In this document: positions 7,522-63,845 of the stretch, piece by piece | Layout: each line of letters begins with the position of its first letter | Position numbering within the stretch: the stretch's first letter is position 1 | From: Mobula hypostoma | Taxonomy: Eukaryota | Length of the DNA stretch: 64,000 bases | NCBI RefSeq assembly: GCF_963921235.1 | Contig: NC_086108.1 | Coordinates: forward strand, 44,146,001 to 44,210,000 | Direction: 5' to 3' | The notes under the pieces: generated by a model | What the model was told of the DNA's origin: nothing | Seen by the model: the letters and a program-made list of their open reading frames with translations, nothing else | The model's database searches: none | Position numbers and translations under genes: made by a program

Positions 7522-8580
7522 CAATGGATTCCAGTTAACTAGGCCATTGGTTCATCAGGGCAGCTGCTTATTTGGGGGCAACTCTTAAAGAACATAAACA
7601 AATCAAGAAAATAGGCTGGATTTCCTTCATTTGGGACACTGTGACACTTAATTTGGGGTAGGAGACTGTTGCAAAACATTTTCTAACTACCATCAGTCGC
7701 GCTCACATCCTGTGGTTGATAGATACCACACTGTATTTAGAGAAAGCAGTTTTTAAATAGCATCACTTGTGTGTTTGTGTTCAAAAAGCAATAATTTTTG
7801 TCACTGATAGATGCAAATAATAAACAACAAGACAATTCAGAACGGTTTTTGCTTACCACGATTTCAAGCATTTAGGCTTGGAGATGCTAGAACTGGCCGG
7901 GAGGGAAAATGAAGCAATTTTACTACCTTAAACAAGTTAGGGACTATGAAGAATTCAAAGGTATCCACAATCATCTTGTATGTAACAATGAAAATACAGT
8001 TTTGGATGATGAAATCATTGAAACCATTGTTTGAAGGCAGTCCATTATCTGCACAAGGTGTCTATGTTGATTTGTTCATTTACAGTCAATCAAAAGAACA
8101 TTCAACAACACACTGGAGGAACTCAGCAGGTTGGGCAGCAACTGTGGAAAAGATTGGTCGACGTTTCGGGCCGGAACCCTTTGTCAGGTTCTGGCCCGAA
8201 ACGTCGACCGAACTTTTCCACGGACGCTGCCTGACCTGCTGAATCCCTCCAGTGTGTTGTCAGTGTTGCTTTTACCCCAGCATCTGCAGATTATTTTGTG
8301 TTTACGAATCAAAAGAACATGTTAGCATACACTGAATGAATTCCTCCGTCAATAAATATTAGGAACTAATACAGTTTTATAGTACTATAGTTGTTAGGTA
8401 GCATTCTCATTTGTTCTATATTCAATTTAAGTACTTAATTTGTTACTCAGTTTATTTCTGTAGTTTCTTTTTTTATACCCTTTTAAATGATTTTCATGAA
8501 GCTTTGACTAATTGGGGTAGCTGCTTAATGGGGCCAGAATGTACTGGTCCTAATGTCTCCTAATTAACTGGAATCTATTA
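7522..8580. mobile_element. Non-autonomous pogo/Tigger-like DNA transposon
   Basis: ~22-bp imperfect TIRs CAATGGATTCCAGTTAACTAGG / CCTAATTAACTGGAATCTATTA flanked by TA on both sides; second copy at ~36976-38505. Confidence 0.75.
8102..8306. mobile_element. Short palindromic Penelope-like terminal element with hammerhead remnants
   Basis: 14-bp TSD AATCAAAAGAACAT (8088-8101, 8307-8320); inverted arms containing GCCCGAAACGTCGACC. Confidence 0.75.
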
Positions 8581-24745: not shown

Positions 24746-25632
24746 AAGAGAAAAAGAGAGTTCAAAGTTCAAAATAAATTTATTATCAAAATACATATAT
24801 GTGAACATATACAACCCTGAGATTCATCCTTTGTGGGCATACTCAATAAATCCATAATAGAATAATAACCATAATAAAGTCAATGAAAGACCACACCAAC
24901 TTGGGTGCTCAATCAGTGTGCAAAAGACAACAGACTGTGTAAAATAAAAAAAAGAAAGAAATAGTAATAATAAATAAATCAGCAATTAATAAAGAGAACA
25001 CGAGATGAAGAGCTACTGAAAGTGAGTCCATACATTGTGGGAGCATTTCAATGATGGGGCAAGTGAAGTTGTGTGAAGTTATTTCCTCTGGGTCAGCAGG
25101 GATGTTTGCGGGCTAATAGCTCATAACAGGGAAATCAGCTACGATTGAGTAGGACCAGAATCAATGGGCTGAATGGCCTAATTCTGCTCCTGTGTCATAT
25201 GTTGCTAAAACATAGAGTGCTAAAGCAAAGAAAGAACCAGGACTTGAAGTCTGTCTATCTGATTAAGGTTGATCTTGGTGAGTGCTTAGACACAGAGGGT
25301 GAAAGTTTCATGAATAACCAAGCAAACAAAAGACAGAATTAGGCAGATTCTATCCTGGTTGTTAATTTTCACCAACACATGAAGTTTAAACTCAACTCTT
25401 CTTTGGCATTCAAGACAAATGGAGATTCCAGGGATGCAATTTCCAGCTTTTTGGATTTATGTATAGAGAGGAGAGTACAAATAATAATTAATCAAATAAT
25501 TCCTTTCTCAAAATAATCGAACTGTAAAATAATGTAAACATGAGGAATTCTGCAGATGTTGGAAATTCAAGCAACACACATCAAAGTTGCTGGTGAATGC
25601 AGCAGTCCAGGCAGCATCTCTAGGAAGAGGTA

Positions 25633-25670
25633 CAGTCGACGTTTCGGGCCGAGACCCTTCGTCAGGACTA
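25633..25670 (-). ncRNA. Minimal type I hammerhead ribozyme (Penelope-type), intact core
   Basis: Minus strand: TAGTC-CTGACGA-A-GGGTCTCGGCCC-GAAA-CGTC^GACTG; stem I AGTC/GACT; loopless palindromic stem III. Confidence 0.8.
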
Positions 25671-26654
25671 ACTGAAAGAAGAGCTAGTAAGAGATTTGAA
25701 AGTGGGAGGGGGAGGGGGAGATCCAAAATGATAGGAGAAGACAGGAGGGGGAGGGATGGAGCCAAGAGCTGGACAGGTGATTGGCAAAAGGAATATGAGA
25801 GGATCATGGGACAGGAGGCCCAGGGAGAAAGAAAAGGGAGGGGGGGGGAAATCCAGAGGATGGGCAATGGGTATAGTCAGAGGGACAGACGGAGAAAAAG
25901 GAGAGAAAGAGAAAGAATGTGTGTATATAAATAAATAAATAATGGATGGGTTACGAGGGGGAGGTGGGGAATTAGCAGAAGTTAGAGAAGTCACTGTTCA
26001 TGTCATCAGGTTGGAGGCTACCCAGAGGGAATATAAGGTGTTGTTCCTCCAACCTGAGTGTGGCTTCATCTTTACAGTAGAGGAGGCCGTGGATAGACAT
26101 GTCAGAATGGGAATGGGATGTGGAATTAAAATGTGTGGCCACTGGGAGATCCTGTATCAGAATGGGAATGGAAATGCCACACATTTTAATTCCACGTCCC
26201 ATTCCCATTCTGACATGTCTATCCACAGCCTCCTCTACTGTAAAGATGAAGCCACACTCAGGTTGGAGGAACAACACCTTATATTCCCTCTGGGTAGCCT
26301 CCAACCTGATGGCATGAACATTGACTTCTCTAACTTTTGCTAATGCCCCACCTCCCCCTCGTACCCCATCCGTTATTTATTTTTATACACACATTCTTTC
26401 TCTCTCTCTCTCTCTCTCTCCTTTTTCTCTCTCTGTCCCTCTGACTATACCCCTTGCCCATCCTCTGTGTTTTTCATCCCCCTCCCCCTTTTCCTTCTCC
26501 CTGGGCCTCCTGTCCCATGATCCTCTCATATCCCTTTTGCCAATCACCTGTCCAGCTCTTGGTTCCATCCCTCCCCCTCCTGTCTTCTCCCATAATTTCG
26601 GATCTCCCCCTCCCCCTCCCACTTTCAAATATCTTACTAGCTCTTCCTTCAGTT

Positions 26655-26691
26655 AGTCCTGACGAAGGGTCTCGGCCCAAAACGTTGACTG
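26655..26691 (+). ncRNA. Decayed copy of the minimal hammerhead ribozyme
   Basis: AGTC-CTGACGA-AGGGTCTCGGCCC-AAAA-CGTT-GACTG; GAAA>AAAA and GTC>GTT are CpG-type changes. Confidence 0.65.
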
Positions 26692-26855
26692 TACCTCTTC
26701 CTAGAGATGCTGCCTGGCCTGCTGCGTTCACCAGCAACTTTGATGTGTGTTGCTTGAACTGTAAAATAAGATGCCTTCAAAGAATACAGCTGACAAACAT
26801 AGGAATAAACCTAAGAAAATAATTCCACTTAGTGAATTGTCAAATGACAGGTTAC

Positions 26856-28900: not shown

Positions 28901-29593
28901 AGACAGGTCTTCAGCTGTTTAGACTGTCTTTAAGGCAGGAGCACATGTTGTGGCACATTTTAAATGGTGGCCACACTCCAATAGCTCACACAGAAGGTGA
29001 TTTTTAATTCCAATGCCATACAAAGAATGTTTAGGGGCTAACGAACCGTGAGTGTTGGGAGCCACAATACAGAACGATCATGGTTACAAACGAGCACTTT
29101 CTAACACGGGTCACTAGGTAACAAGCTGGGACAGGGCGGGATCATTTTCTTAGCCCAGCAACACTGAAGCAAATACAAGTACCTGCTTCATTGCCCTGGT
29201 TGTACCATCTGGCTCAGTGGATATTACAATTGGGCAAGTCTGGTCTATTTTTTTTTAAACAAGCTCTGTAATCAAACTGACCTAATCTTCCAAGTGAAAA
29301 AGTACAAATTTATCTGTTCCATTGCGCTTGCTGTTTGCTCCTTTTGTACGTTTAGTTACATTAACAAATTTAACCTACAGTAAATATATTTCATGTTGTG
29401 CTCACCAATAAGGGCAACTTCTACACAACAGAAAAAATTCTTCTACAAACTCTTGGCATCAAACACAAGATCAGAGAAAATTATTTTAGAAATAGAACAA
29501 GCTAAGGCAGTTATACTAATATTCAAAATTTATGAAGTAACCTTTTATATATCTTGTACACTGGGAACTAAATCCTTATCAACCAATTTCAAC

Positions 29594-29629
29594 ACTGGAG
29601 AATGCACCCTAACAGGTGTATGTAACAAG
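29594..29629 (+). repeat. 36-bp terminal direct repeat, 5' copy
   Basis: ACTGGAGAATGCACCCTAACAGGTGTATGTAACAAG, identical to 35602-35637. Confidence 0.95.
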
Positions 29630-31260
29630 TAGTTTCTGGTCTGTACCAGTGGCTTCCAGGAAAGACTGGATGGCAACCGAGGAAGGTCGGTGACGCTGGA
29701 GAGACAGCTGCCCTCCAGGAAGGACTGGCACAGGCTCACAACGCTAGCAACCTTGTGGGCAGCATTCGCAAGAGGGCACCACTCAAGCTACAACTGAACA
29801 CGAACAGCAATACCCCCAGATTCTCCCAAGAGGGGGGGAGGATGAGAGACTCAACGGGACGGTCATACCGGCAACGGCCAGGACAGGAAACACGACTACG
29901 AGGAAGCTAAAGCAAACAACACTGATCGGAGAGGAATTCTTGGTAAGGTGTCGTTGCGGGAAAGTCTGCAAAAACATCAGAGGGCTCAAGATATACCAGA
30001 GCAGGTCTAGATGTGGGTCAATGGTGACCCACGTGCAGCGCACGGACTTAGTATCCAGTGAGACGAAGGAGAATTCCAGCCAGGAAGCTCCCCACAGAGC
30101 TGAAGATCTCTCCACAGTTGAGTCGCCTCAGCATCGAACAACAGACCTAGTGAGTTCCTCTTCCACTACCCCAATCCATTCATCAAGGAAAGACAGGATC
30201 AAATAGCATAGATCGTCAGACAACGTCACCTGGATGCAGTTCGATGATGATCTAGACGGATTAGCAGGTCCAGTACACAGAAAGATCAACTCACTCACAG
30301 CCACAGCGTACAATCTAGCAAAGGAACGATTTGGCCCAATGGAGCGGAGAAGCCAGCCGGAGTTACTGTGGCAACCAAATAGGAGGGAAACGAAGATTCG
30401 TCGCTTGAGAGGTGAATTAAAGACGCTCAACAAGAAGTTTAAAACCAGCTCACCGGCTGAAAAAGAAGGTATCAAGGACTTAACCAGTATTCTGCGGGAA
30501 AAGCTGTGCAAACTCCGGAGGGCAGAACACCTGCGACAGCAAAGAAGGAAGAAAGAGAAAAGGCGAGCACAGTTTGTGAGAGATCCATTCAGCTTCACCA
30601 GGACTCTTCTTGGCCAACAAAAATCTGGTATACTATCCAGCTCGAAGCCAGAGGTAGAGGAGTTCCTGTGGGAGGCACACAGCGACCCACAGAGGGGTCA
30701 GGGACTAGGAACCAATCGGGCTGTGTGTAGACCAGAAAAACCATCGATTGAGCTGAATGTGAAGGAACCTACATGGCAGGAAATCCAGGACATCTTCCGG
30801 AAAGCTAAAGCATCAGCTGCCCCAGGCCCAAGCGGCATACCTTATAAGGTGTATAAGAAATGCCCAAAACTTCTTTGGAGGCTGTGGAAGGTCATGAGAA
30901 AGATCTGGGTCAAAGGTACCGTTCCATCAAGTTGGAAATTGGCAGAGGGATGCTTTATTCCAAAGGAAGAGGTTTCTTCCACAATTGCCCAGTTTAGGAC
31001 AATTTCTCTCCTGGATGTGAAATGTAAGATTTTCTTTTCTGTGCTCACAAGAAGGCTGACTTGTTACATGACACAATACCGCTATATCAACACATCCATC
31101 CAGAAAGGCAGTATTCCAGGCTTTTCAGGGTGTCTGGAACACACCTCATTGATTAGCCATTTGATCTGTGAGGGCAAGCAGAAAAAAGGCGACCTAACAG
31201 TTATCTGGTTAGACCTCGTGAACACCTATGGGTCTATTCCACATGACCTCATCAGGGAAA

Positions 31261-33548
31261 TGTGCTATGGACATGTGGTCGATGTTTAGAGATCTCTTGC
31301 AGGATGTTAGGGATAAATTTTTCCCGGTGAGGAAGATAAAGAATGGTAGGGTGAAGGAACCATGGGTGACAAGTGAGGTGGAAAATCTAGTCAGGTGGAA
31401 GAAGGCAGTATACATGAGGTTTAGGAAGCAAGGATCAAATGAGTCTATTGAGGAATATAGGAAGGCAAGAAAGGAGCTTAAGAAGGGGCTGAAAAGAGCA
31501 AGAAGGGGGCATGAGAAGGCCTTGGCAAGTAGGGTAACGGAAAACCCCAAGGCATTCTTCAATTATGTGAAGCAAAAAAGGATGACAGGAGTGAAAACAA
31601 CAGGAATTCTGCAGATGCTGGAAATTCAAGCAACATACATCAAAGTTGCTGGTGAACGCAGCAGGCCAGGCAGCATCTATAGGAAGAGGCGCAGTCGACG
31701 AAGGGTCTCGGCCTGAAACGTCGACTGCGCCTCTTCCTATAGATGCTGCCTGGCCTGCTGCGTTCACCAGCAACTTTGATGTATGTTGACAGGAGTGAAG
31801 GTAGGACCGATTAGAGATAAAGGTGGGAAGATGTGCCTGGAGGCTGTGGAAGTGAGCGAGGTCCTCAATGAATACTTCTCTTCGGTATTCACCAATGAGA
31901 GGGAACTTGATGATGGTGAGGACAATATGAGTGAGGTTGATATTCTGGAGCATGTTGATATTAAGGGAGAGGAGGTGTTGGAGTTGTTAAAATATATTAG
32001 GATGGATAAGTCCCTGGGGCCTGATGGAATATTCCTCAGGCTGCTCCACAAGGCAAGGGAAGAGATTGCTGAGCCTCTGGCTTTGATCTTTATGTCCTCG
32101 TTGTCCATGGGAATAGTACCGGAGGATTGGAGGGAGGCGAATGTTGTCCCCTTGTACAAAAAAGGTCGTAGGGATAGTCCAGGTAATTATAGACCAGTGA
32201 GCCTTACATCTGTGGTGGGAAAGCTGTTGGAAAAGATTCTTAGAGATAGGATCTATGGACATTTAGAGAATCATGGTCTGATCAGGGACAGTCAGTATGG
32301 CTTTGTGAAGGGCAGATCGTGTCTAACAAGCCTGATAGAGTTCTTTGAGGAGGTGACCAGGCATATAGATGAGGGTAGTGCAGTGGATGTGATCTATATG
32401 GATTTTAGTAAGACATTTGACAAGGTTCCACACGGTAGGCTTATTCAGAAAGTCAGAAGGCATGGGATCCAGGGAAATTTGGCCAGGTGGATTCAGAATT
32501 GGCTTGCCTGCAGAAGGCAGAGGGTCGTAGTGGAGGGAGTACATTCAGATTGGAGGATTGTGACTAGTGGTGTCCCACAAGGATCTGTTCTGGGACCTCT
32601 ACTTTTCGTGATTTTTATTAACGACCTGGATGTGGGGGTAGAAGGGTGGGTTGGCAAGTTTGCAGACAACACAAAGGTTGGTGGTGTTGTAGATAGTGTA
32701 GAGGATTGTCAAAGATTGCAGAGAGACATTGATAGTATGCAGAAGTGGGCTGAGAAGTGGCAGATGGAGTTCAACCCGGAGAAGTGTGAGGTGGTACACT
32801 TTGGAAGGACAAACTCCAAGACAGAGTACAAAGTAAATGGCAGGATACTTGGTAGTGTGGAGGAGCAGAGGGATCTGGGGGTACATGTCCACAGATCCCT
32901 GAAAGTTGCCTCACAGGTGGATAGGGTAGTTAAGAAAGCTTATGGGGTGTTAGCTTTCATAAGTCGAGGGATAGAGTTTAAGAGTCGCGATGTAATGATG
33001 CAGCTCTACAAAACTCTGGTTAGGCCACACTTGGAGTATTGTGTCCAGTTCTGGTCGCTCACTATAGGAAGGATGTGGAAGCATTGGAAAGGGTACAGAG
33101 GAGATTTACCAGGATGCTGCCTGGTTTAGCGAGTATGCATTATGATCAGAGATTAAGGGAGCTAGGGCTTTACTCTTTGGAGAGAAGGAGGATGAGAGGA
33201 GACATGATAGAGGTGTATAAGATAATAAGAGGAATAGATAGAGTGGCTAGCCAGCGCCTCTTCCCCAGGGCACCACTGCTCAATACAAGAGGACATGGCT
33301 TTAAGCTAAGGGGTGGGAAGTTCAAGGGGGATATTACAGGAAGGTTCTTTACTCAGAGAGTGGTTGGTGCGTGGAATGCACTGCCTGAGTCAGTGGTGGA
33401 GGCAGATACACTAGTGAAGTTTAAGAGACTACTAGACAGGTATATGGAAGAATTTAAGGTGGGGGCTTATATGGGAGGCAGGGTTTGAGGGTCGGCACAA
33501 CATTGTGGGCCGAAGGGCCTGTACTGTGCTGTACTATTCTGTGTTCTA
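31261..33548 (+). mobile_element. 5'-truncated CR1 LINE nested in the Hero-like element
   Basis: RT motifs NYRPVSLTS, GVPQGSVLGP, KFADNTKV; frameshift near 33060; flanking GAAA duplication (31257-31260, 33549-33552). Confidence 0.93.
31596..31786. mobile_element. Short palindromic Penelope-like terminal element nested in CR1
   Basis: 13-bp TSD TGACAGGAGTGAA (31583-31595, 31787-31799); perfect 70-bp inverted arms 31631-31700 / 31719-31788. Confidence 0.9.
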
Positions 33549-35601
33549 GAAAGACTCGACCACTACTACATCCCATTGGCTATTCGAGGCATGATCACCA
33601 GCTACCTAGGGGGATTCAAACTCAGATTTACATCAGCCCATTTCACAACTAGTTGGCAGGACCTCCAGAAGGGGATTCTAACAGACTGCACCATCTCCCC
33701 CATTCTATTTATTATGGGAATGAACGTCCTATTATCAGCAGCAGAAGATGTAACCCGTGGCCCGACGCTGGAGTCAGGCATTGTTCAGCCGGCTCTATGA
33801 GCGTTCATGGACGACATCAATATAACAACTGTGTCACATGTCCAAGCAAGATGGGTATTGGAAAGCCTGGGTAATGTAGCCACTTGGGCGAGGATGTCCT
33901 TCAAGGCCAAGAAGTCCAGGTGCACGGTGATCAGAAAGGGCAAAGTTATTAGCAAGTTTAGCCTCCAAGTTCAGGGAGAGGTCATCCCTTCCATCGAAGA
34001 TAACCCGATAAAATGCTTGGGGAAGTGGTTTAATGTGTCACTGACAGATGGGGCCAATGTCACCAATGCTGTGAAGCAGACAGACGAATGGCTGAAGAAG
34101 ATCGACAAATCCAGACTTCTGGGTAAATTCAAGACCTGGCTGTACCAATACAGCATTCTGCCCAGGCTCCTCTGGCTCTTCACACTTTATGAGTTCCCCA
34201 TGACTGCCGTAGAGGGCATCGAGAGGAAAATCAACAAGCACCTGCGGAGATGCTTGGGAGTTCCCCCAAGCTTCTCTTCAGTGGGGCCTCTACATTTGTT
34301 CTGGGCAACTGCAGCTTCCCCTGTTGTGGAGGAATTCAAGGTGGCAAAATGCAGAGCCTTATTAAGCTTGAGAGATTCCAATGACATCTTGGTAAAGCAA
34401 GCAGGTGTTGTAACCAGATCTGGGCGCAAGTGGGCAGCCAACGCAGCTGTGGAGCAGGCAGTGTGTTCTCTGAAGCTGCGAGATATCATCGGCAACCCCT
34501 GCATCGGGCGGCAAGGCCTCAACTCAGTTCACTTCCAGTGGTGGGGAAACGCAAGCACAAGGAACAGGCGAGACATGGTACAGGCAGAAGTACGGATCCG
34601 TGAGGAAGTGAAGTGGATGTCAAAGGCAGTGGAAGAAGAGTCCCAGAGTGCCTGGACAAAATGGGATCTGCCTCAGCGCAAGATCTCATGGGCAGAGTTA
34701 TGGAGACTGAAGCCCTTCCGTATTTCCTTCCTCTTGCGATCCGTGTATGACACCCTTCCTTCACCACTACATCTGTACACACGGGGAATGAGAGAGGACC
34801 TGTACTGTAAGCTCTATGGTCAAAAGGGGACACAGGCTCATATACTGTCTGGGTGTAAAACAGCTCTAACTCAAGGACGGTATAGGTGGCGCCATGATAA
34901 GGTGCTTCTGGCTCTTGCTGACACACTAGAGTGGGAGAGATGCAAGAAGAGGACGGCTGGCACAGATTTGAGGAAGGCCATCACCTTCATCAAAGAGGGA
35001 GTCAGGCCTTTCGTAACCAAACAACCAAAGCCCAATCTGCTGCTAACGGCCAGGTCCTGGGAGATGAGGGTCGACATGGGAAGGAGGTTGCAGTTCCCAG
35101 ATGTGGTGCACACAACCCTACGCCCGGACATTGTACTGTGGTCAACCGAAGACAAGAAAATAATTCTGGTTGAGCTGACTGTGCCGTGGGAGGAGGGATG
35201 GGAAGAGGCCCACGAGAGAAAGGCCTTAAAGTACCAGCCCTTATTGCAGGAGTGTAAAGACAAGGGATAGCAGGCATGGTTTTTCCCTGTGGAGATCAGC
35301 TGCAGAGGTGTCCCAGCCAAATCAGCATGGCAGTCGTTGTCAGATCTGGGCCTGGACGAAAGGAGCAAAAAACAAGCAGCTTGTAGGATGGGGAAAGAGG
35401 CAGAATGAGCCTCTTGTTGGATTTGGAGTAGGCAAGAGGAGGGAAGCTGGAAGCCAGGAGCAGATGGGCAGTGATTTGACCACCACTGCCAGCCCACCAA
35501 CTGCAGAGTGTCGTGTTTAAGGGTCGAAACACTCTGTGAAGGTTGGGAACCACCTGATGACATCTGCTCCTGGCTGAAGGCTATGGTTACCTTATAAGGT
35601 A

Positions 35602-35637
35602 ACTGGAGAATGCACCCTAACAGGTGTATGTAACAAG
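35602..35637 (+). repeat. 36-bp terminal direct repeat, 3' copy
   Basis: Identical to 29594-29629; overlapped at its start by the perfect palindrome GTTACCTTATAAGGTAAC (35586-35603). Confidence 0.95.
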
Positions 35638-35798
35638 CAACACTGAATCTTAAATTGTCAACTATAAATCAGGATTTTAGATACTACATATTTGTAAGAC
35701 AATTAATTGTGAGTCAGCTATAAATCTTGCGCTGAATTACTTACAACAGAAAATTCAAAATTTCTAATATCAACCAAATGACCTGCACAAGTTTTACG

Positions 35799-53315: not shown

Positions 53316-56300
53316 TGTTATGTTTGGGGTATTGGGAAACAGGGTGGCTGTGAATAACAGACACGAGAGACGCAGAGGTGAGGAACAAATGTACAGCTGT
53401 TTATTTTGCTTGTAAGTCATCTACCCGGAATGCCCTCTCACATTACATTCAGTACATAAAACAAAGGGAAGCTTGACATCTACCCATAAAGGTCAAAATA
53501 TACATGAATACACAACATATCTCTCCACTTTCCCACACACAGACAAGCTGTTGAACTATTAACATTTAATGGAGTAATCATCACATTCAGCCGACAACCA
53601 AAAACACTTTTTTCTGAACTTGCGAAAGAGAGTAGACTGCCTCTATTCCCAGACATAAACCTGAGCATTATTATGCCCCATGTGTTGAGGGTTGGTCACT
53701 AAACTACAGACAACCTGGGGATGTTGCCAAAGTCATTTTATCTCTTGGTGGTGTGAGTAGAGATCTTGGGTACTGAATTGTCAGTAGGGGACACCTTAGA
53801 AAGCACAGGTGATGGTGAAGCACTGGCTGTGTCATTTGGTCTCAATGGAAATTCTGCAATCATTGTCTCAGAATCCTGTCCCATTTTTATATCTGGATCT
53901 GGATCTGGACTGGTCAGTTTGTGTTGGTTTTCAGTAGCCTCAGAAATGGGTAACAGCTGATCAACACGCCTTCTCCCGATGTTGTAGTTATCAATTTGCA
54001 CTGTGGACAACACAAGACCAGCTTGTATCACCACCATTATAGGTATCCACTTTGTTCCCGAGTCATTGTTCTGGGCAAGTACCTTCTCTCCTGCTAGAAA
54101 TTTCTATACTTCGCTGTTGCACATCTCTCTGCTTGGGTTTCCTGTTCATTCAATACAATTCGTTTTGTGTTTGGGGGTCTAATCAGTCAAGCCGGATGCA
54201 AAGCTGTCTGTTCATCAGTGCAGTGGCTGAAGCCATTTTGGTGGTGGTGTGAGGTGTGTTGCAGAATATCAGCAAGAAAGTGCTAAGACACTGGTTGAGG
54301 GATCCACTTTCCAATTAATTCTTGAGGGCTTCTTTTATTGTACGAATCATTCAGCAAGGCCATTAGTGGCTGGGTGATATGGTGCTGACTTACATGCCTT
54401 GAACTCTTCAGAAAGGAGTTGTGGGCCATTATCACTCAAGCTGTTGAGGAAGCCTAAAACGGCCAAAAATGGAACAGAGCTCCTCAATGCATTTTTCAGA
54501 CGTAGGGCTCTTCATGATGGCAATCTCAGGCCACTTGCTTGTGCATCCATTATGACCAAGAGCATGTGGCCTTCCACAGGTCCTGCAAAATCTGTGTGCA
54601 TCCTCTGCTATGGTTCTTTGGGCCACTCTCATGGATGCAAAGGAGTAAGTCACTGGCAACGTGGGCATGCTTTGGCCTTCTCTTCAATGGTTACATTCAG
54701 TCCAGGCCCAAAAGTAAATACATGTGATTTCTTTCATGCAGACTATGCCACAGAGTCCTGCATGTTCTACGCAAGCACTTGCTTTCTTAATGGTGGAGGA
54801 ATGACAACACGGTATCCCCATAGTAAACGTGCTTAGACTGTGAGCACCTCCTATCGAGCCTGATAATGTTTCAATCCTATGATTGGTTCTTCTTTCCATT
54901 CGTGAGTTACCACGTCCATTGCTTTAGATAGAACAGTGTCAGTACATGTGTGCTCTGGACCTCCACCACAGTTATCAGCGCTGTAGGTACTTCCTTGAAG
55001 TAAGAGGTCTCTTTCGGTGATGGCTCTAGAGCTGTAACGGTCAAGGGAAGTCTGGATAGTCCATCAGCATTCGAGTGGTGCTCAGACCTCGTGTGCTTTA
55101 TATCATACTGATGTGCAGATCATAACAGAGCTCAACGTTGCTTCCGACTAGCAGTCAGGAAAGAAATGCCCGCATGTGAACCGGAAATTGACGACAAGGG
55201 GCAGTAGTGTACTGATGACAATCTGTCAGTAGTGTAAATCATTGATCAAAGAGGAATTGATAGAATTTATTAACTCCAAAAACAATTGCAAGTGCTTCCT
55301 ACCCAATCTGGGCATCGTGGCTTTCTGCTTTGCTTAAAGTCCTTAATGCGAAAGCAACTGGACGTACTTCACCCGGTGGCATGATGTGTGGGATAACAGT
55401 TCCCCCACCATAGGGTTGATGCATCACAGGCCAACGGTATGGGCAATGACGGGTTGAAATGTGTGAGTGCTTTGTCACAATGTGACAATGTTGTTTTGTC
55501 CTTTTTAAAAGTCTCTTCATAGCTTTTAATTTATTTAAAAGTTCATGAAATGGGTTCAGCATGCTTGCTAAGTTAGGAATAAACTTTGGGTAGTATGTTA
55601 GTAGTCCGAAGAAAGATGTTAATTGACATATTCAGTGGTGATGGAGCCTCTATAGTTGCCTTCACCTTTGACTTATGCCTTCTGAAGCCGAGTTGTTGAT
55701 CGCATGGCCCATATATTCAATCAAAGTTCAAAAGAACAAATAACCATACTTATGGATCCGTGGCCCATATTCCCAGAGTCTCCTTGAGTTTTGTACATGC
55801 TTATGCTCATTCTTCCCAGTAATGAGTAAGTCGATCAAAGAGCATTGCACCCTGTCAACCTGTTCAGAATCTGGTTCACTGCTCATTGAAAAAGCTGAAG
55901 TGATGTCAATTGGAAGCCTTCGCTATCTGAACATCTCTTGTGGGTCACTATAATCAACAGTTCCTGTGACTCTGGCTCCATACGCACCTGCAAGTACGCT
56001 TGTCACAAGGCAATCTTCCTCAATGTCTGTCCTCTGGCCAATAATGTAAAAAAGGTCATCAAAGAGGGGAAGAGGGTGTTGTTCAGCCATAAGAACCAGG
56101 TTAATGGTTACCTTGACATCTGCACAAAGCTTCAAAGACCCATCCCTTTTTAGAACAGGAACCACCGGAGTAGCCCATTTACTTACATACACTGGTTCCA
56201 ATACCTTACTCAGATCAAGTCTTGAAGGTGAATGGAACGGTCTTGCCTTCAGACATTTGATTGTTGTGTCAGACATACAAGCCAGTTTAACAGTGATTCT

Positions 56301-57366
56301 TTTCATACTGCCCAGTTCTCCACTGAATACTTCTGTGTATTTCTTCAATACCTCTTGTAGTCCAGTGCTCTCAACGATCAAGTGCACTTTGTGCCAGTTG
56401 AGTTTGAGCTACTCTAAGCACGAGTGGCCCAGAAGGACTGGATAATTTCCTTTAACAATGTACAACAGAAGTTAATCTCCACTGTAACATGTCCTACTCC
56501 CCTCACTGGAACAACCTCACCAGCGTACGCCTTTACAATCAACCTTGCCCCTTCTGGGGTGAGATGTGGTAATTTCCCCTTGTAAACTGGCTCAGACACC
56601 AGTGTGTGTCCACCTGCATCCTCACTGCAGCCCCATCCAACCATGGGGTCACCCAGTAGCTGTCTTTATGTTCTGAAACAGGTAAAACATGCAAAGCTTC
56701 TCCAACCACAGAGTGAGAGTCACTCAGGCCTACCTGGTTGCACTAGACTGAGTTTTTAGCTCCTATTACAGGAAGAAAAGTTGAAACACAAATATCATCT
56801 GAAATTTGATTTGCCAGTGCAAAATAATTAACCCTTTCAGTAAATGAACTCCATTGTTCTGTTGCTTCGTCATACAGCCACATCCTTCCAAACACCCAAA
56901 CACTGTTGCCTTTTTCAAACATAATCATGTTCCAGAAAGGTTAACGAGTCTCACCCATCTCTCTCTCTCTCTCTCTCCTTCTCTGATTTGTTTTATTTAA
57001 TTGTCCTGTTCTCGTTCTCTCCCCTCAGATTCTTCACTCAGCACACTCCCTCAGTCCCTGCAGCCATTTCCACGTCGCTCACCCACATTCCACAGCGGTA
57101 CTCTGCCAGTAATGCACACAGATGTTCCTCGCCGACGAGAACCAAACTATAAATACCGCATGAGGATTTGTCACCTCATCACGTTTGTGATACTGGGAAT
57201 CCGGGCGGCCGTGAATAAAACTCACCAGACACGGAGAGGTGAGGAAAAATGTGCAGCTGTTTATTTTACTTGTAAATAATGCTCTCTCACATTACGTTCA
57301 GTATGTAACACACAGGGAAGTTTGACAGCAACCTGCAAGGGCCAAAATATACATGAATACATAACA
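53316..57366 (-). mobile_element. Decayed Gypsy/Ty3 LTR retrotransposon
   Basis: Diverged ~200-bp LTRs (53316-53517, ~57177-57366); 5-bp TSD GATAT; minus-strand polypurine tract ~53520-53534; remnants in gag-RT-RNaseH-integrase order (QWSSFTERVNYFALAN; WATPVVPVLKRDGSLKLCADVK; RPVAFALRTLSKAE; ELCSIFGRFRLPQQL). Confidence 0.9.
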
Positions 57367-57619
57367 GATATGACTTTAATGCCTTCCCTCTCATCAGTGT
57401 GAGCCAATTAACATGAATATTCATCTATTGTCTCTCCCTGCATAGATACAGTGGTACAGAAACAAAATCTCCCCCACCGGACGACTGGCTTCTTATCAGT
57501 TGGTGAAAGTTAAATAGTGAACAGGATTCTTTTTGAAGACTGGCTTTTGTTTGACAGAAAGCTCCATAACTCATGAATAACACAAGTAGTAAATTTGCAG
57601 ATGTCAAATTTACTAAAAT

Positions 57620-58567: not shown

Positions 58568-61500
58568 TCATCTAAAGTCTGCTCGCATTGGGGTTATATA
58601 TTCAATCCATTTATTCCAGATTTGATAAAATTTTTCTTTTTGAATTCTCAGGGCGTAAGTCAACTTTTCCATTTTAAATATTCCCAAAATAATTTCGTAC
58701 CAATCTTCTAATGCAGGTGGTATTGGATTTAGCCATTTTCTAGTGATTGATTTCTTACTTGCCGCTAAGAGGGCCTGCAGCAACTTTATATCTTCCTTCT
58801 GTTCAGGAAACAATACATGCCCCAAATAGAGCGTCTCAATGTTCAGAGGTATCTGGGACCTAAGTACCTTAACTAATGTTCTATGAATACCTTCCCAAAA
58901 TAGACTTAATTTAAGGCAATCCCAGAAAATATGAAAATGATTTGCCTCCTTGGAGCCGCACCTTCTCCAACACATCACATTTGTATCTTTATATTTTTCC
59001 TGATATGGGGTCTTGAAGTATCTTATAATGTTCTTCCAACAATGTTCTCTCCAAGTCAAAGAATTAGTCGAGGACCATTGAAAGCTGCAGATTTTCCCCC
59101 AAGCCTCCTCTGAAAGTACCAACCCCGCTTCTTTCTCCCACTTCTCTTTAATATACAGTGTATTTACATTTTTAGCATGGGAGAGTGCATTATATAATCG
59201 AGAAACTGATTTACTAGGTATTGAACTGCAAGCCGAATTCAGAATCTTGAAAAATTCTAATTCTACTGTTGATAAGTCTGTATATCTACAACTCTGGTTA
59301 ACATAGTTTCATACTTGAAGGTACCTAAAAAAGTCATTATGTTCTAGGCCATGTTTGTCCTGCAGGATTTGGAAACTTTGTAATACTCTTTTATCTATAA
59401 ATGAGAGGTAGGTTGTAAGACCTTTCTTTATCCACAGCTCAAATCTTTTATCTCCTCTGTTGGGAAGGAATTCGGTATCATATGCACACCATCTAAAGAG
59501 TTTTAACATGTTATTAATTCCACATGAATTAACCACCTTCTGCCATACTTTTAATGTAAGATTTATCCAACTGTTTTTAAATTTTTCCAACTGGACCATC
59601 AATCCTTTGTCAGCTATTGAGGCCTGTAGAGGAAAACTGTCAACTAATCCAAATTCTATTTCCTTCCATCTAGCCTTATATTCCCTATTACACCAATATA
59701 ACAGAGGGGTTAATTGTGAGGCATAAAAATAATTTCTCAGGCAAGGAAGAACCATACCTCCTCCTTCCTTCCCTAACTGTAAGGTGTTATATCGAATTCT
59801 AGGTTTCTTTCCTTGCCAAATGAAGCGGGAAATCCATTTGTCCCATTCCCTGAATTGATTATCATCCACCTCCACCAGTAAAGTACGGAAAAGATACAAT
59901 AACCGAGGAAGAATATTCATTTTTATAGTATTTATCCTTGAATTTAAACTTAAAAAGGGGATAAGATTCCATCTATGCATATCTGCTTTTATCTCTGAGA
60001 TTAATGGTCCATAATTTACCTGTGACAGTGTTGAAAGATCCTTTGGCAGGGTTATTCCTAAATATTTTAATGATTTAGCTTCCCACTTAAGATCGTATGT
60101 ATCCTGCAATTTTTTGGATGGTGTATAATTTAGGGACATAACCTGCATTTTCTTTACATTTATTTTATAACCTGATATTTTCCCAAAGTCATCCAACAGT
60201 GTAAACAATCCTATAAATGATTTTTCTGGTTCACTCAGATAGACCAAAACATCATCTGCGAATAACGCCACTTTCTGTTCAATCCCTGCCACCTTGATAC
60301 CTTTTACGATTTCACTCTGTCTTATTAGTTGGGCAAGCGGTTCAATATATAGCGCAAAAAGGAGAGGAGAAATTGGGCATCCCTGTCTAGTGCCTCTCTC
60401 TAAGATGAAGGAGTCAGAGAGGTCCCCATTTATCTTAATTCGGGCTGTAGGGCTGTCATATAGAGTCTGAATTACTTTAATAAACTTTTCTTGAAAGCCG
60501 AATCTTCCTAACACTCTGTATAGGAATGCCCAACTAACCGAATCAAAAGCTTTCTCAGCGTCCAATCCTACTACCATTGTCTCTGTCTCGTTCTTATTAA
60601 CCTGTTCTAATATGTGCAGAGTTCTCCTTATGTTGTCCTGTGTTTGTCTTTGTTGAATAAATCCAGTCTGGTCTAAATGGATTAGGCCAGGTAAAAGCTT
60701 TTCCAATCTGCGCGCTAATATAGATGTAAATAGTTTGTAATCTAAATTAAGAACACTAATTGGCCGATAATTGCCATATTCTAGTTTATCTTTACCCTCT
60801 TTAGGAATAAATGAAATAATCGCTTCTCTCCAGGAAGGTGGAGTTTCTCCTCTCTGCAAGATCCAATTAAAGGTGTTAAGTAGTAATGGGGCTAACTGTG
60901 TCTTCAGGGACTTGTACCACTCTGAGGTAAACCCATCAGAACCCGGGGACTTTCCAGCCTTTAACCTAGAGATGGCCACGTTCAGTTCTTTGACAGTTAC
61001 TGGTTCTAATAAACTTTCATTTTGTAAATCTGTATGTTTAGGTAGATCTAAAAAATTCAATACACTGTCTATATAGGACTCATTGGGGGCCCGGGGTTGG
61101 GAGTACAGCTCTCGATAATATGTTTCAAAACTCTCTTGAATTTTCCCTATTGTACTCTCCACAAGCTTTGTCTTTGATTCTTTATTTTATGAATTGTATT
61201 GTCTGCTTGTTGTTTTCGTAATTTATATGCTAATAATCTAGCTGATTTACCTCCTACTTCATAATTCTTTTGTCTCAGGTAAAGAAAATTTCTTTGAGTT
61301 TCCAACGTATAAATATCGTTAATTTCACTTTGCAATTTCCTAATTTCCTGTTTTCGATTTGAATTACTTTTGTTGCTATCTACAACTTGAAGTTGTTTTA
61401 ATTTTCCTTGAAGGTCTGCTAATTTTTGTGCATTGATTTTTTTCATGTGAGTGGTAATGGAAATAATTTTCCCTCTCAGTACAGCTTTCAATGTATCCCA

Positions 61501-62363
61501 TAAGATCACTGGTGACGTTTCTCCCGTGTCATTAAGGTCCAGATATTCTTTGATTTCTCCCCTTAATCTCTCCATTACTTTCGGGTTATTGAGTATATGT
61601 GAGTTTAGCCTCCATAGTGTTATAGTGTTTTCCTCATTTTCCTTTCCAGGATTAGAGACATAGAGACTGGGCTATGATCCGACAGATCAATTGTTGCAAT
61701 ATTACAGTTTTTTATCCTGAGTCTATCTGTATTAAAGATAAAGAAATAGTCTATCCTTGAATAGGCTGAATGAGGGAAAGAGTAATATGTATAATCTTTA
61801 CTAGTAGGGTGTAATTCCCTCCAGACATCTATAATTCCCAACTCCTCCATCAATGAATTCACTTTCCGAGTCAGAGGTTTATTCTGAGTAACTATTCTTG
61901 AAGAATCTAATATAGGATTTAATCTAATATTAAAATCCCCTCCACAAATTACTACCCCTCGAGAACTGACCATTAGGTCAAAAATGTGTCTATAAAATGA
62001 CCATTCACTACCTGGAGGAGCATAAACATTCAGCAATGTTACTTCTGTACTTTCTATTCTTCCTGTGATTTTTACAAACCGTCCTTCTTTGTCTCTAGTC
62101 TCTGAAATATGTTCATAATTAAGAGTACTTGATATTAAAGTAGCTACCCCTCTTTTGTGACTCAATTTATATGATGAATAAAATACATGCTTAAAGCCCA
62201 TTCTTTTTAATTTTCCATGTTCAGATTGGCTCATATGTGTTTCCTGGAGGAAAGCTATTTGTGCCCTCTCTTTTTTCAATATAGACATAATCTTATTTCT
62301 TTTAATTGGATTCAAAACCTCATTAACATTATAGGAAATTATTTTTACCAATTCAGTTTGCAT
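58568..62363 (-). pseudogene. L1 ORF2 (endonuclease-RT-C-terminal Cys-rich region), three frameshifts
   Basis: SYNVN, FLQETH, GGDFN, SRIDY, SDH, GKSPGSDG, NYRPISVLN, LDAEKAFD, GTRQGCPISP, LFADD, CWRRCG..HIFWDC. One frameshift is an 8-bp tandem duplication ATAGTGTT at 61614-61629. Confidence 0.93.
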
Positions 62364-62761
62364 TTTTCTCTAGTAGAAAAAAAACACTCTCCTTTTCTAA
62401 CCAAACAGTAAGCAATCCCTTCTCAACAGTAAACCAAGACATATAACCACACCCCAGACATTTTTGAATGTGTAACATTTGAAAATTTTTCCCGACTTCC
62501 CACAGTGAGGCCTGAGCACCAACCCGCCTCAGTTCAGAGGGATAACCTCTATCTTCACCCTGTGTTAGAGGGCCCTCAGCAGTTTGAATAATCATAGAGA
62601 ATTTTCTCCTATTTATGTCTCGACCAAATTGCTATCATTCAAGTTATTCCGCCTAGTTTATTTTCAGTTACCAGTTTTCGTTTTACCTTTAAGTCCGATT
62701 TACTCTTTTCAGTCATTTCTCTTAATTAATCTGTATTCTCTGTACATTCGCGTCTGAATAT

Positions 62762-63712
62762 TTACAGCTTTTCCTTGTAGTTTGACACTCTGGTTCGTGT
62801 GGAGCGTCCTCGCCCCACTAACTGCCACGACTTCTGCCGAATCCTCTCCAGTAGCGACTCCGGTTGGGTGATAACTTTAATAGGTAGTCTCCAGTCCGCC
62901 AGGTCCGACGTTGCCTCCTCCACCGTTGCGTAAGTTTTTGTCCCTTCGTCGTAAAAGACTCTCAGCCGAGCTGGATACAGGGTCTGGAATCTGATGTTGT
63001 TTTCCTTCAGGACTCTCCGTGTTTCCGTATATTCCTTCTGTCTGGCAAGAATCCCCGGTGCGTAGTTGTGGTCTAAACTGATTTTACAGTTGTTCCATAT
63101 GAAACCTTTCTTTTGCCATGCCCTTTTAAGCACCTCTTCCTTCGTTCTGTAACTGAGAAATCTGACCAGAATCGATCTGGGCTGGGCACCTGCCGGAGGC
63201 TGTGGTGCCAACGTGCAGTGAGCCCTTTCTATCTGTAGGTCTTTTGCGGCCGGTATATCAAGGTTCTCTCTAAGCAGCTTCTCCACGAAGGGAATCATCA
63301 ATCCGGGTTTACCTTCAGTTCCTTCGGGAACTCCGTAAATCCTCACATTTTCCCTTCTCGAGCGGCCTTCTTGGCCTATGAGCTTCCACTGGAGCTGGTC
63401 TTGCAGCTTCAGCATTTCTGCTATCACTTCCTCAGCGTTTTGTAGTTTCTCTTCAATTCGAACAATCCTCGCTTCGGTTTCATCTATCCACGAGTTAGTT
63501 TTTACTATTTCTCCTTTAATATCTTCCAGCTGTTTGCTGTTATCTTGTCGGAACTCGCGAATCTCTCCGAGAATCAAAGACAGAGTCACCGATTCCCCCT
63601 CATTATCTCCGTCCTGGCTTGCCATGGGGGAGCTAGGCCTGTCGCCTTGCTGCGTCTCTTTATGTTTATCAGCCTTCGGAGCGGACTTTTTAATCTTGTT
63701 CTTAGACATCAT
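62762..63712 (-). CDS. L1 ORF1 protein (coiled coil, RRM, CTD)
   Basis: EGRSRRENVRIYGVPEG, IERAH, PRSILVRF, LYPARLRV. Confidence 0.9.
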   Translation of the reverse strand: MMSKNKIKKSAPKADKHKETQQGDRPSSPMASQDGDNEGESVTLSLILGEIREFRQDNSKQLEDIKGEIVKTNSWIDETEARIVRIEEKLQNAEEVIAEMLKLQDQLQWKLIGQEGRSRRENVRIYGVPEGTEGKPGLMIPFVEKLLRENLDIPAAKDLQIERAHCTLAPQPPAGAQPRSILVRFLSYRTKEEVLKRAWQKKGFIWNNCKISLDHNYAPGILARQKEYTETRRVLKENNIRFQTLYPARLRVFYDEGTKTYATVEEATSDLADWRLPIKVITQPESLLERIRQKSWQLVGRGRSTRTRVSNYKEKL

Positions 63713-63845
63713 CCTTGCCCCTTTTATTAATATAGTTATGCAATATTAAGTATTTGTCCAAATTCGATTTTGGGGCAGTTTACCTTCTTTTTTGTCGAGA
63801 GACCTTTTCCTTACGCCGCCATTCCCTTGATGACCCGGAAGTCCC

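Follow-up and report, generated by a model that had tools for sequence, protein, structure and literature searches.

Why should a retrotransposon without long terminal repeats (a non-LTR element) carry the last 36 nucleotides (nt) of its own sequence a second time at its 5' end? The question arises from a 64,000-nt stretch of Mobula hypostoma DNA (contig NC_086108.1, positions 44,146,001 to 44,210,000; here, the window), in which a first-pass annotation had described an element with a reverse transcriptase (RT) and a restriction-enzyme-like endonuclease (REL). We find that the terminal repeat is real and is a kind of feature already known in the clade of this element, the HERO/Zebulon-type retrotransposons. 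The finding of value lies in the 3' untranslated regions (UTRs) of HERO elements, where sequence comparison points to a conserved, covarying, hammerhead-like RNA of new topology.

The two copies of the 36-mer match perfectly (29594-29629 and 35602-35637), the match cannot be extended into the flanks at either copy, and there is no third copy on either strand of the 64-kb window. An 8-bp duplication, CAACACTG, lies at 29590-29597 and 35638-35645 and has ACTG in common with the left copy of the 36-mer; because this 8-mer occurs 11 times in the window, it is meaningful by position only. As had been claimed, the unit ends without poly-A or a tandem-repeat tail, and the 36-mer folds (-9.4 kcal/mol, z = -1.94, 9 of 200 shuffles as good). 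The palindrome of 18 bp at 35586-35603 is likewise perfect, the longest of the three in the window that reach at least 14 bp. It is a family hairpin whose loop is self-complementary by happenstance, and hairpins of other sequence occupy its place in four related loci (L001, L013, L016 and L043). The unit is built as follows, the predicted cut and the RNA motif being described further below.

29590-29597, + strand: left target-site duplication (TSD) CAACACTG, its last 4 bases being microhomology with the element
29594-29629, + strand: 5' copy of the element's last 36 nt, a truncated pseudo-LTR, +90 to +125 past the predicted cut
29630-29635, + strand: 6-nt spacer of the 3'-to-5' junction, from junction comparison
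29636-29710, + strand: conserved 5' hairpin array (CUGG-loop-CCAG, then repeated GUGAC and GAAA-loop hairpins), from an 18-locus alignment
29781-31253, + strand: 5' half of the HERO open reading frame (ORF), with an N-terminal zinc-finger-like region and the start of the RT; broken
31254-33545, + strand: nested CR1-type long interspersed nuclear element (LINE), 5'-truncated, a later insertion (joint 31253-33546 in runs X1, X2 and X15)
31583-31799, no strand assigned: ~204-bp inverted-repeat insert within the CR1 element (70-nt perfect arms at 31631-31700 and 31719-31788; 13-bp terminal duplication)
33546-35474, + strand: 3' half of the HERO ORF (rest of the RT, decayed CCHC, PD..D/ExK REL), with its stop codon (35472-35474) inside the RNA motif
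35452-35575, + strand: rearranged hammerhead-like RNA, from parse, covariation and fold
35585-35604, + strand: hairpin containing the 18-bp palindrome; the 5' copy starts at the hairpin's 3' foot
35602-35637, + strand: 3'-terminal 36 nt, with a terminal stem-loop at 35610-35629 (GCA...UGU) that is kept in relatives
35638-35645, + strand: right TSD CAACACTG

The 6,056-bp unit at 29590-35645 thus holds two elements. The REL retrotransposon that had been described as a single element is there, with both RT and REL domains present, but the nested LINE at 31254-33545 had been overlooked; the REL element proper is ~3.75 kb long, and its ORF is interrupted by stops and frameshifts. The nested LINE has an RVT_1 match (E = 2.9e-34), and we assume that CR1 is the right clade for it. 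Contigs or reads of four runs (X1, X2, X15 and X21, the last contributing 27 reads) were aligned to the window, and in contigs of three of the four (X1, X2 and X15) position 31253 is joined to 33546 without CR1. Contigs from X2 span the left junction with 0 differences and contigs from X1 the right junction with 3, so that the site is filled in these two runs as well; one contig from X15, which begins 27 nt into the repeat, enters the 5' UTR with 16 differences, below the 31-nt bridging rule. The family is multi-copy in X1 and X2, where its summed depth is in the thousands, compared with 14-46 in the left flank.

The window copy is a dead HERO/Zebulon-type RT-REL element. It has a single ORF, no apurinic/apyrimidinic endonuclease (APE) and the endonuclease residues RPDIV..ELTVPWE..K; its RT, found as RVT_1 pieces, is a non-LTR RT of the R2 group, and the best PDB matches of the profile are R2 proteins (E = 3e-45). 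The CCHC motif is conserved in A1, and its second C is lost in the window copy. The two halves of the protein are 57% and 64% identical to protein P0002, and the protein is 45% identical over 498 amino acids to the Tetraodon polyprotein Q7T1J8, which we take to be Zebulon. Among the best 120 of 283 matches, the hosts of the relatives are teleosts, lancelets and bivalves. In a tree built from relatives only, with Q7T1J8 inside and with neither outgroups nor Repbase sequences, Q7T1J8 clusters with the motif-bearing loci L010, L012, L029 and L048 (support 100/99). Its cluster mate Q76IN1 is presumably HEROTn, and the Zebulon / HERO clade names of AAN12398 and BAC82599 are likewise our assumption. 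The Tetraodon element with tandem structure that Bouneau and colleagues described in 2003 is reportedly Zebulon. Elements of the Zebulon/HERO clade share with the window element a single ORF, an RT with a C-terminal REL and a partial tandem structure; unlike them, the window copy is dead and split by CR1. As side observations, three proteins of the P0002 cluster (P0126, P0128 and P0129) have near-consecutive accessions on one loach chromosome, a hint of neighbouring, possibly tandem copies, and two loci (L068 and L069) are HERO fragments carried by two short contigs of a bacterial genome record, which probably represent animal DNA that entered the assembly. Viral and prokaryote collections, when scanned, yielded two short fragments and otherwise nothing of use.

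Is the redundancy peculiar to this copy? A metagenome scan returned 354 related stretches, the best 80 of which gave 67 loci. We counted the 20 loci outside the window whose 5' UTR start is intact, excluding ~10 other N-terminal matches that lack it. In 18 of the 20, element 3' sequence lies directly ahead of the 5' UTR: 12 carry the full motif (ORF end through 3' UTR), five start inside the 3' UTR (its 3' blocks) and one has the tail only. The junction of L016, the nearest full-length relative, is homologous to that of the window from repeat base 7 onward (78.7% over 1,677 aligned bases). Because 3' sequence precedes the 5' UTR family-wide and the L016 junction is homologous, neither a TSD nor a one-off event explains the 36-mer. 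The first-pass annotation was right to take the 36-mer as element sequence and CAACACTG as the TSD, since homologues of the 36-mer lie inside related elements at 3' ends and junctions. A long TSD, such as some REL clades make, would account for the identity of both copies; given those homologues and the separate 8-bp duplication that brackets the 36-mer, we find it barely credible.

The terminally redundant template proposed earlier is upheld by these 18 loci, whereas the alternative of a one-off template jump is disfavoured, as a 3'-to-5' junction of near-fixed spacing recurs across families. One could also suppose that the junction is made afresh each time, by end-to-end template jumping, which R2 RT is known to perform, or by new copies inserting at old 5' ends. 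Locus L001, a heterodimer that switches at or after the junction, speaks for such a process. Against it speak the retained 5-7-nt spacer, which insertion 3' ends lack and which is homologous in the window and L016, the 18 of 20 intact 5' ends that carry the junction, and the one TSD that brackets the window unit; on balance we think it very improbable. The redundancy is not the novelty it had been taken for: the title of a 2003 paper already names a non-LTR element "with tandem structure" in Tetraodon (Bouneau et al., PMID 12805276).

The 3' termini of insertions are as regular as the junction is widespread. Eight comparisons of a junction with an insertion end were made, chosen by eye from six families that have both, and in all 8 the insertion stops 5-7 nt short of the CUGG hairpin with which the 5' UTR begins. 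Fixed 3' termini inside the junction fit internal RT initiation, and a processed RNA end would look alike. Since the ends fall at this place, RT would start immediately upstream of the hairpin array on an RNA that bears the junction. With 18 loci aligned, this array is the most conserved non-coding sequence of the element. The repeated module of GUGAC and short GAAA-loop hairpins at 29636-29710 could represent protein-binding sites or an internal promoter.

A hammerhead-like motif had been noted in the 3' UTR, and it proves to be a family trait. A hammerhead core (NUH, GAAAC and CUGAnGA, in that order) was parsed in 36 of 38 3' ends, counted as ORF ends that are followed by 100 nt or more, that of the window among them; in the other two, L051 and L027, inspection by eye finds the fold present and the core altered. 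The motif is absent from L057, whose contig is cut before the ORF end. Parse scores of at least 18 were reached by 35 of 38 real regions, 2 of 380 shuffled and 0 of 38 reverse-strand regions. A strict descriptor applied to 503,674 locus bases found two additional matches, both in HERO-like 3' UTRs. A second strict-descriptor match in the window (17528), inside an unrelated LINE fragment, was taken as chance.

After removal of seven copies at least 80% identical to others, the 29 non-redundant copies were aligned with the window copy by sequence alone. GAAAC is present in 26 of the 29, U16.1 in 28, a base other than G at position 17 in 28 and C11.1 in 26. Mutual information, calculated with no structure supplied, placed all of the top 20 pairs within five of the six proposed helices and 25 of the top 30 within the six. 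Over the 38 pairs of these helices, 90.1% of cells are paired, against 62.1% in shuffled and 34-43% in slid alignments, and 35 pairs show two-sided changes; relatedness can inflate such covariation counts, and the motif loci span the whole tree, with proteins 35-86% identical to P0002. Stems I and III adjoin the core in exact hammerhead register (95.7% and 96.1% paired), with two-sided changes at 4 of 4 and 5 of 6 pairs, respectively. In the window the fold of 35452-35575 stands out (z = -5.7); that of 35470-35645 is unremarkable (z = -0.22) because helix X is cut off. The parts of the motif, as we read them in the window, are these.

35452-35466, + strand: helix X, 5' strand
35467-35490, + strand: hairpin H0
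35491-35495, + strand: stem II, 5' strand
35497-35501, + strand: P0, 5' strand
35506-35512, + strand: stem III, 5' strand, and H17
35512/35513, + strand: predicted cut
35513-35518, + strand: stem I, 5' strand
35521-35525, + strand: stem II, 3' strand
35526-35529, + strand: GAAA
35529-35534, + strand: stem III, 3' strand
35542-35546, + strand: P0, 3' strand
35548-35553, + strand: stem I, 3' strand
35554-35560, + strand: CUGAUGA
35561-35575, + strand: helix X, 3' strand

Stems I and II contain mismatches in the window copy; most family contigs have a G at 35516, which pairs in stem I. The ORF stop codon falls within or near helix X or hairpin H0 in most copies (35472-35474 in the window), and because it is often inside one or the other, translation could gate folding of the motif.

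The wiring departs from the ordinary hammerhead types, a point that the first-pass annotation had missed, in that stem II pairs upstream and not after CUGAnGA. A stem II continuing from CUGAnGA would be 48.7% paired, compared with 46.4% in shuffles (93 of 500 as high), and the pairs that the bases after CUGAnGA make with the pre-GAAA strand number 1.14 versus 1.05. That strand pairs instead ~20 nt upstream of the cleavage triplet (92.5% paired), with a G-C at the equivalent of 10.1-11.1 in 24 of 29 filled rows, and the bases after CUGAnGA run directly into helix X, which closes the whole motif. From its sequence, the motif looks like a hammerhead core in which a helical branch replaces the A9-G10.1 link. 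One extra base is tolerated between A9 and G10.1; a search of the open literature found no paper on insertions at this place.

Assignment to a type II hammerhead was rejected, as stem II is not formed after CUGAnGA. The S, G, C block order of a type SGC hammerhead is present and an intact Block C is lacking; because the pre-GAAA strand fails to pair after CUGAnGA, the motif is not filed under this type either. Type SGC, as described by Eckert et al. 2023 (PMC10085705), and the HERO motif share the order of cleavage-site block, GAAA block and CUGAnGA, a short linker between stems I and II and an extra helix beside the 3' strand of stem I. In the HERO motif, by contrast, Block C is split, since stem II has its 5' strand upstream and the extra helix has its partner there too; helix X and hairpin H0 occupy the A9/G10.1 position. 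The same paper reports type SGC from no genome of a known organism, and three HERO core 12-mers were not found in the text of its supplement (PMC10085705).

A different view of these data is that the RNA is non-catalytic, a protein-binding or termination element with hammerhead-like bases, and that the redundancy comes from uncut tandem templates. We judge this improbable: no core position has been lost, stems I and III keep their exact register and the 10.1-11.1 equivalent its G-C, among elements as divergent as the protein identities above indicate, and L008 starts two bases past the predicted cut. The view does gain from a stem II that fails to continue from CUGAnGA and from altered core bases in L026, L037, L051, L055, L066 and L027, although the altered copies may be decayed insertions. 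It gains, too, from an Rfam search at E up to 10 that gave five weak matches and no ribozyme, a result uninformative on the wiring because Rfam models cannot represent this block order.

The 5' ends bear on the predicted cut indirectly. In L008 host flank is joined to the element at cut+2, and contig L007 begins at cut+2; the agreement of these two ends with a cut at the predicted site is suggestive.

How, then, might the repeat have arisen? What we observe is a single TSD, a junction shared across the family, a 3' terminus at a fixed place and a fold that covaries. Our best model, to which we give a probability of roughly 0.55, is that the RNA is cut by the ribozyme, that its ends are joined or clamped and that RT starts internally; the single TSD that brackets the whole window unit supports it. 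The window locus would be one insertion, from a template RNA carrying the element's own 3'-to-5' junction, which is seen family-wide. The hammerhead core of new wiring would cut after NUH, here at 35512/35513. From a pseudo-LTR or tandem transcript, cutting would release a unit RNA that has the last ~125 nt of the element at its front, from cut+1, and the cut as its 3' end. Both product ends are joined by helices X, II, P0 and III, which could act as a nicked-circle clamp or permit re-ligation. The RT-REL protein may bind the conserved junction hairpins, and target-primed synthesis would start internally, 5-7 nt before the CUGG hairpin, where insertion ends are observed. RT would copy the tail, cross the cut, proceed through the ORF and 5' UTR, cross the junction and copy the tail again up to the point where it halts; halting at the RNA 5' end would leave a pseudo-LTR beginning near cut+1. 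In the window copy RT would have halted after 32-36 nt (between +90 and +94), by the foot of the palindromic hairpin, and the ACTG shared with the target would have served as microhomology. CR1 would have inserted afterwards, and the copy decayed.

Self-cleavage and circular RNA are what we infer from these patterns. The fuller proposition, that HEROs of fish, lancelets and bivalves possess an active pseudoknotted hammerhead with a helical branch for A9-G10.1, which cuts RNA and rejoins it into a circle, and that an R2-like protein copies this circle from an internal start, explaining the pseudo-LTRs of the clade, we advance tentatively, at somewhat less than even odds.

Several observations weigh against cutting and joining of the RNA. 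The A9-G10.1 backbone link is absent. The parser itself selects on core motifs, which inflates the core counts. At position 17 U is commonest (12 of 29), and NUU triplets cleave slowly. Two loci of the 20, L006 and L058, have no demonstrable 3' sequence at the 5' end. Only two 5' ends lie at the cut, one of them a contig end, and the contigs of L010, L015 and L016 start 22-39 nt upstream of it. Tandem-looking contigs are possibly collapsed repeats, and a collapsed assembly can mimic full tandems, not the junction itself. In L001 (88-7300) two HERO families 68% alike stand head to tail, a join that a single circle does not give; both halves of its first motif come from the first family, which places the switch at or after the junction, downstream of the motif, and the locus is either a real mixed dimer or an assembly chimera. 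Neither the tandem joint nor the empty site is among 15 of the 1,955 joints, a set dominated by CR1, which weighs neither way. Eckert et al. 2023 (PMC10085705) assume that Block C cannot be interrupted. For Penelope PAc, PMC11167929 reports hammerhead mutants without effect on insertion in vitro and an absence of RNA-seq ends at the cut.

Tandem master arrays could yield similar products with no circle at all. Here the upstream ribozyme cuts a read-through transcript and the downstream one stays uncut, RT runs from the downstream junction to the 5' end, and dispersed copies are mostly dead ends. For 5' ends at the cut and for 3' termini, such arrays make the same predictions as the best model; in 12 loci a single contig runs from the ORF end through the 3' UTR into the 5' UTR, although contigs cannot separate true arrays from collapsed pseudo-LTRs, and L001 may be a real mixed array. 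Partial cleavage is plausible, given that published type SGC hammerheads are slow (0.007-0.13 per min; PMC10085705). The arrays leave four helices clamping both product ends without explanation, and we consider them unlikely, if the most serious challenge to a cut and joined or clamped RNA.

The analogy to Penelope that had been drawn is apt, the shared feature being a pseudo-LTR from partial tandem structure, found here at 18 of 20 intact 5' ends. According to Frangieh et al. 2024 (PMC11167929), Penelope-like elements have partial-tandem pseudo-LTRs, a hammerhead in the repeat and an RT start inside junction-spanning RNA, as we describe or propose for HERO; they differ in their GIY-YIG endonuclease, telomerase-like RT and conventional hammerhead, where HERO has an R2-like RT-REL protein. 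No Pfam match to GIY-YIG or to a telomerase-like RT was found in the window element. The HERO element works like Penelope and is not a member of that group. We know of no terminal redundancy in R2. R2 (PMC13580325, PMC12222951) belongs like HERO to the REL superfamily and has a ribozyme that frees element RNA from a longer transcript, as proposed here for HERO; its ribozyme is 5' and hepatitis delta virus (HDV)-like, of another class. Retrozymes (bioRxiv 10.64898/2026.07.22.740005) have hammerhead-processed tandem repeats giving circular RNA that is thought to be reverse-transcribed, to which we liken the proposed HERO cycle; they are non-coding, with type I hammerheads in animals, whereas HERO is autonomous. 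In the open literature, with subscription papers, Repbase and Fell 2025 outside the search, we found neither a ribozyme nor a fixed internal 3' terminus nor a 5' end defined by a cut for the HERO clade, and no link between HERO/Zebulon and a hammerhead.

If true, this reading would bring a non-circularly permuted hammerhead, a kind so far reported outside organismal genomes, into a retrotransposon clade that is widespread in animals, and its wiring would lie beyond the six permutations enumerated by Eckert et al. (PMC10085705). Descriptor and Rfam searches would miss the motif, so many animal genomes may hold unrecognised ribozymes. The tandem structure of Zebulon-type elements, known for 20 years, would also gain a mechanism that can be tested, and pseudo-LTR, hammerhead and internal RT start would appear to have arisen twice, in Penelope and in a retroelement lineage unrelated to it. 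Proteins of the R2 family are under development for gene insertion, and a member that possibly starts inside an RNA that is structured or circular would hold practical interest.

The window contains other features. The short inverted-repeat element found within CR1 (31583-31799) has several further window copies, near 8105, 11580, 20515, 25533 and 26661. A 1.2-kb fold-back at 25566-26758 has nested inverted arms of 281 nt (95%) and 278 nt (87%), and 53322-53520 and 57183-57369 form a diverged direct duplication ~3.85 kb apart (79-83% in two blocks). An open frame at 747-1436 with a Menorin domain (PF10223, E = 2e-42) is probably a host exon. On the - strand, 58568-63745 is a near full-length, broken L1-like LINE with a Transposase_22-like ORF1, an APE endonuclease and an RT.

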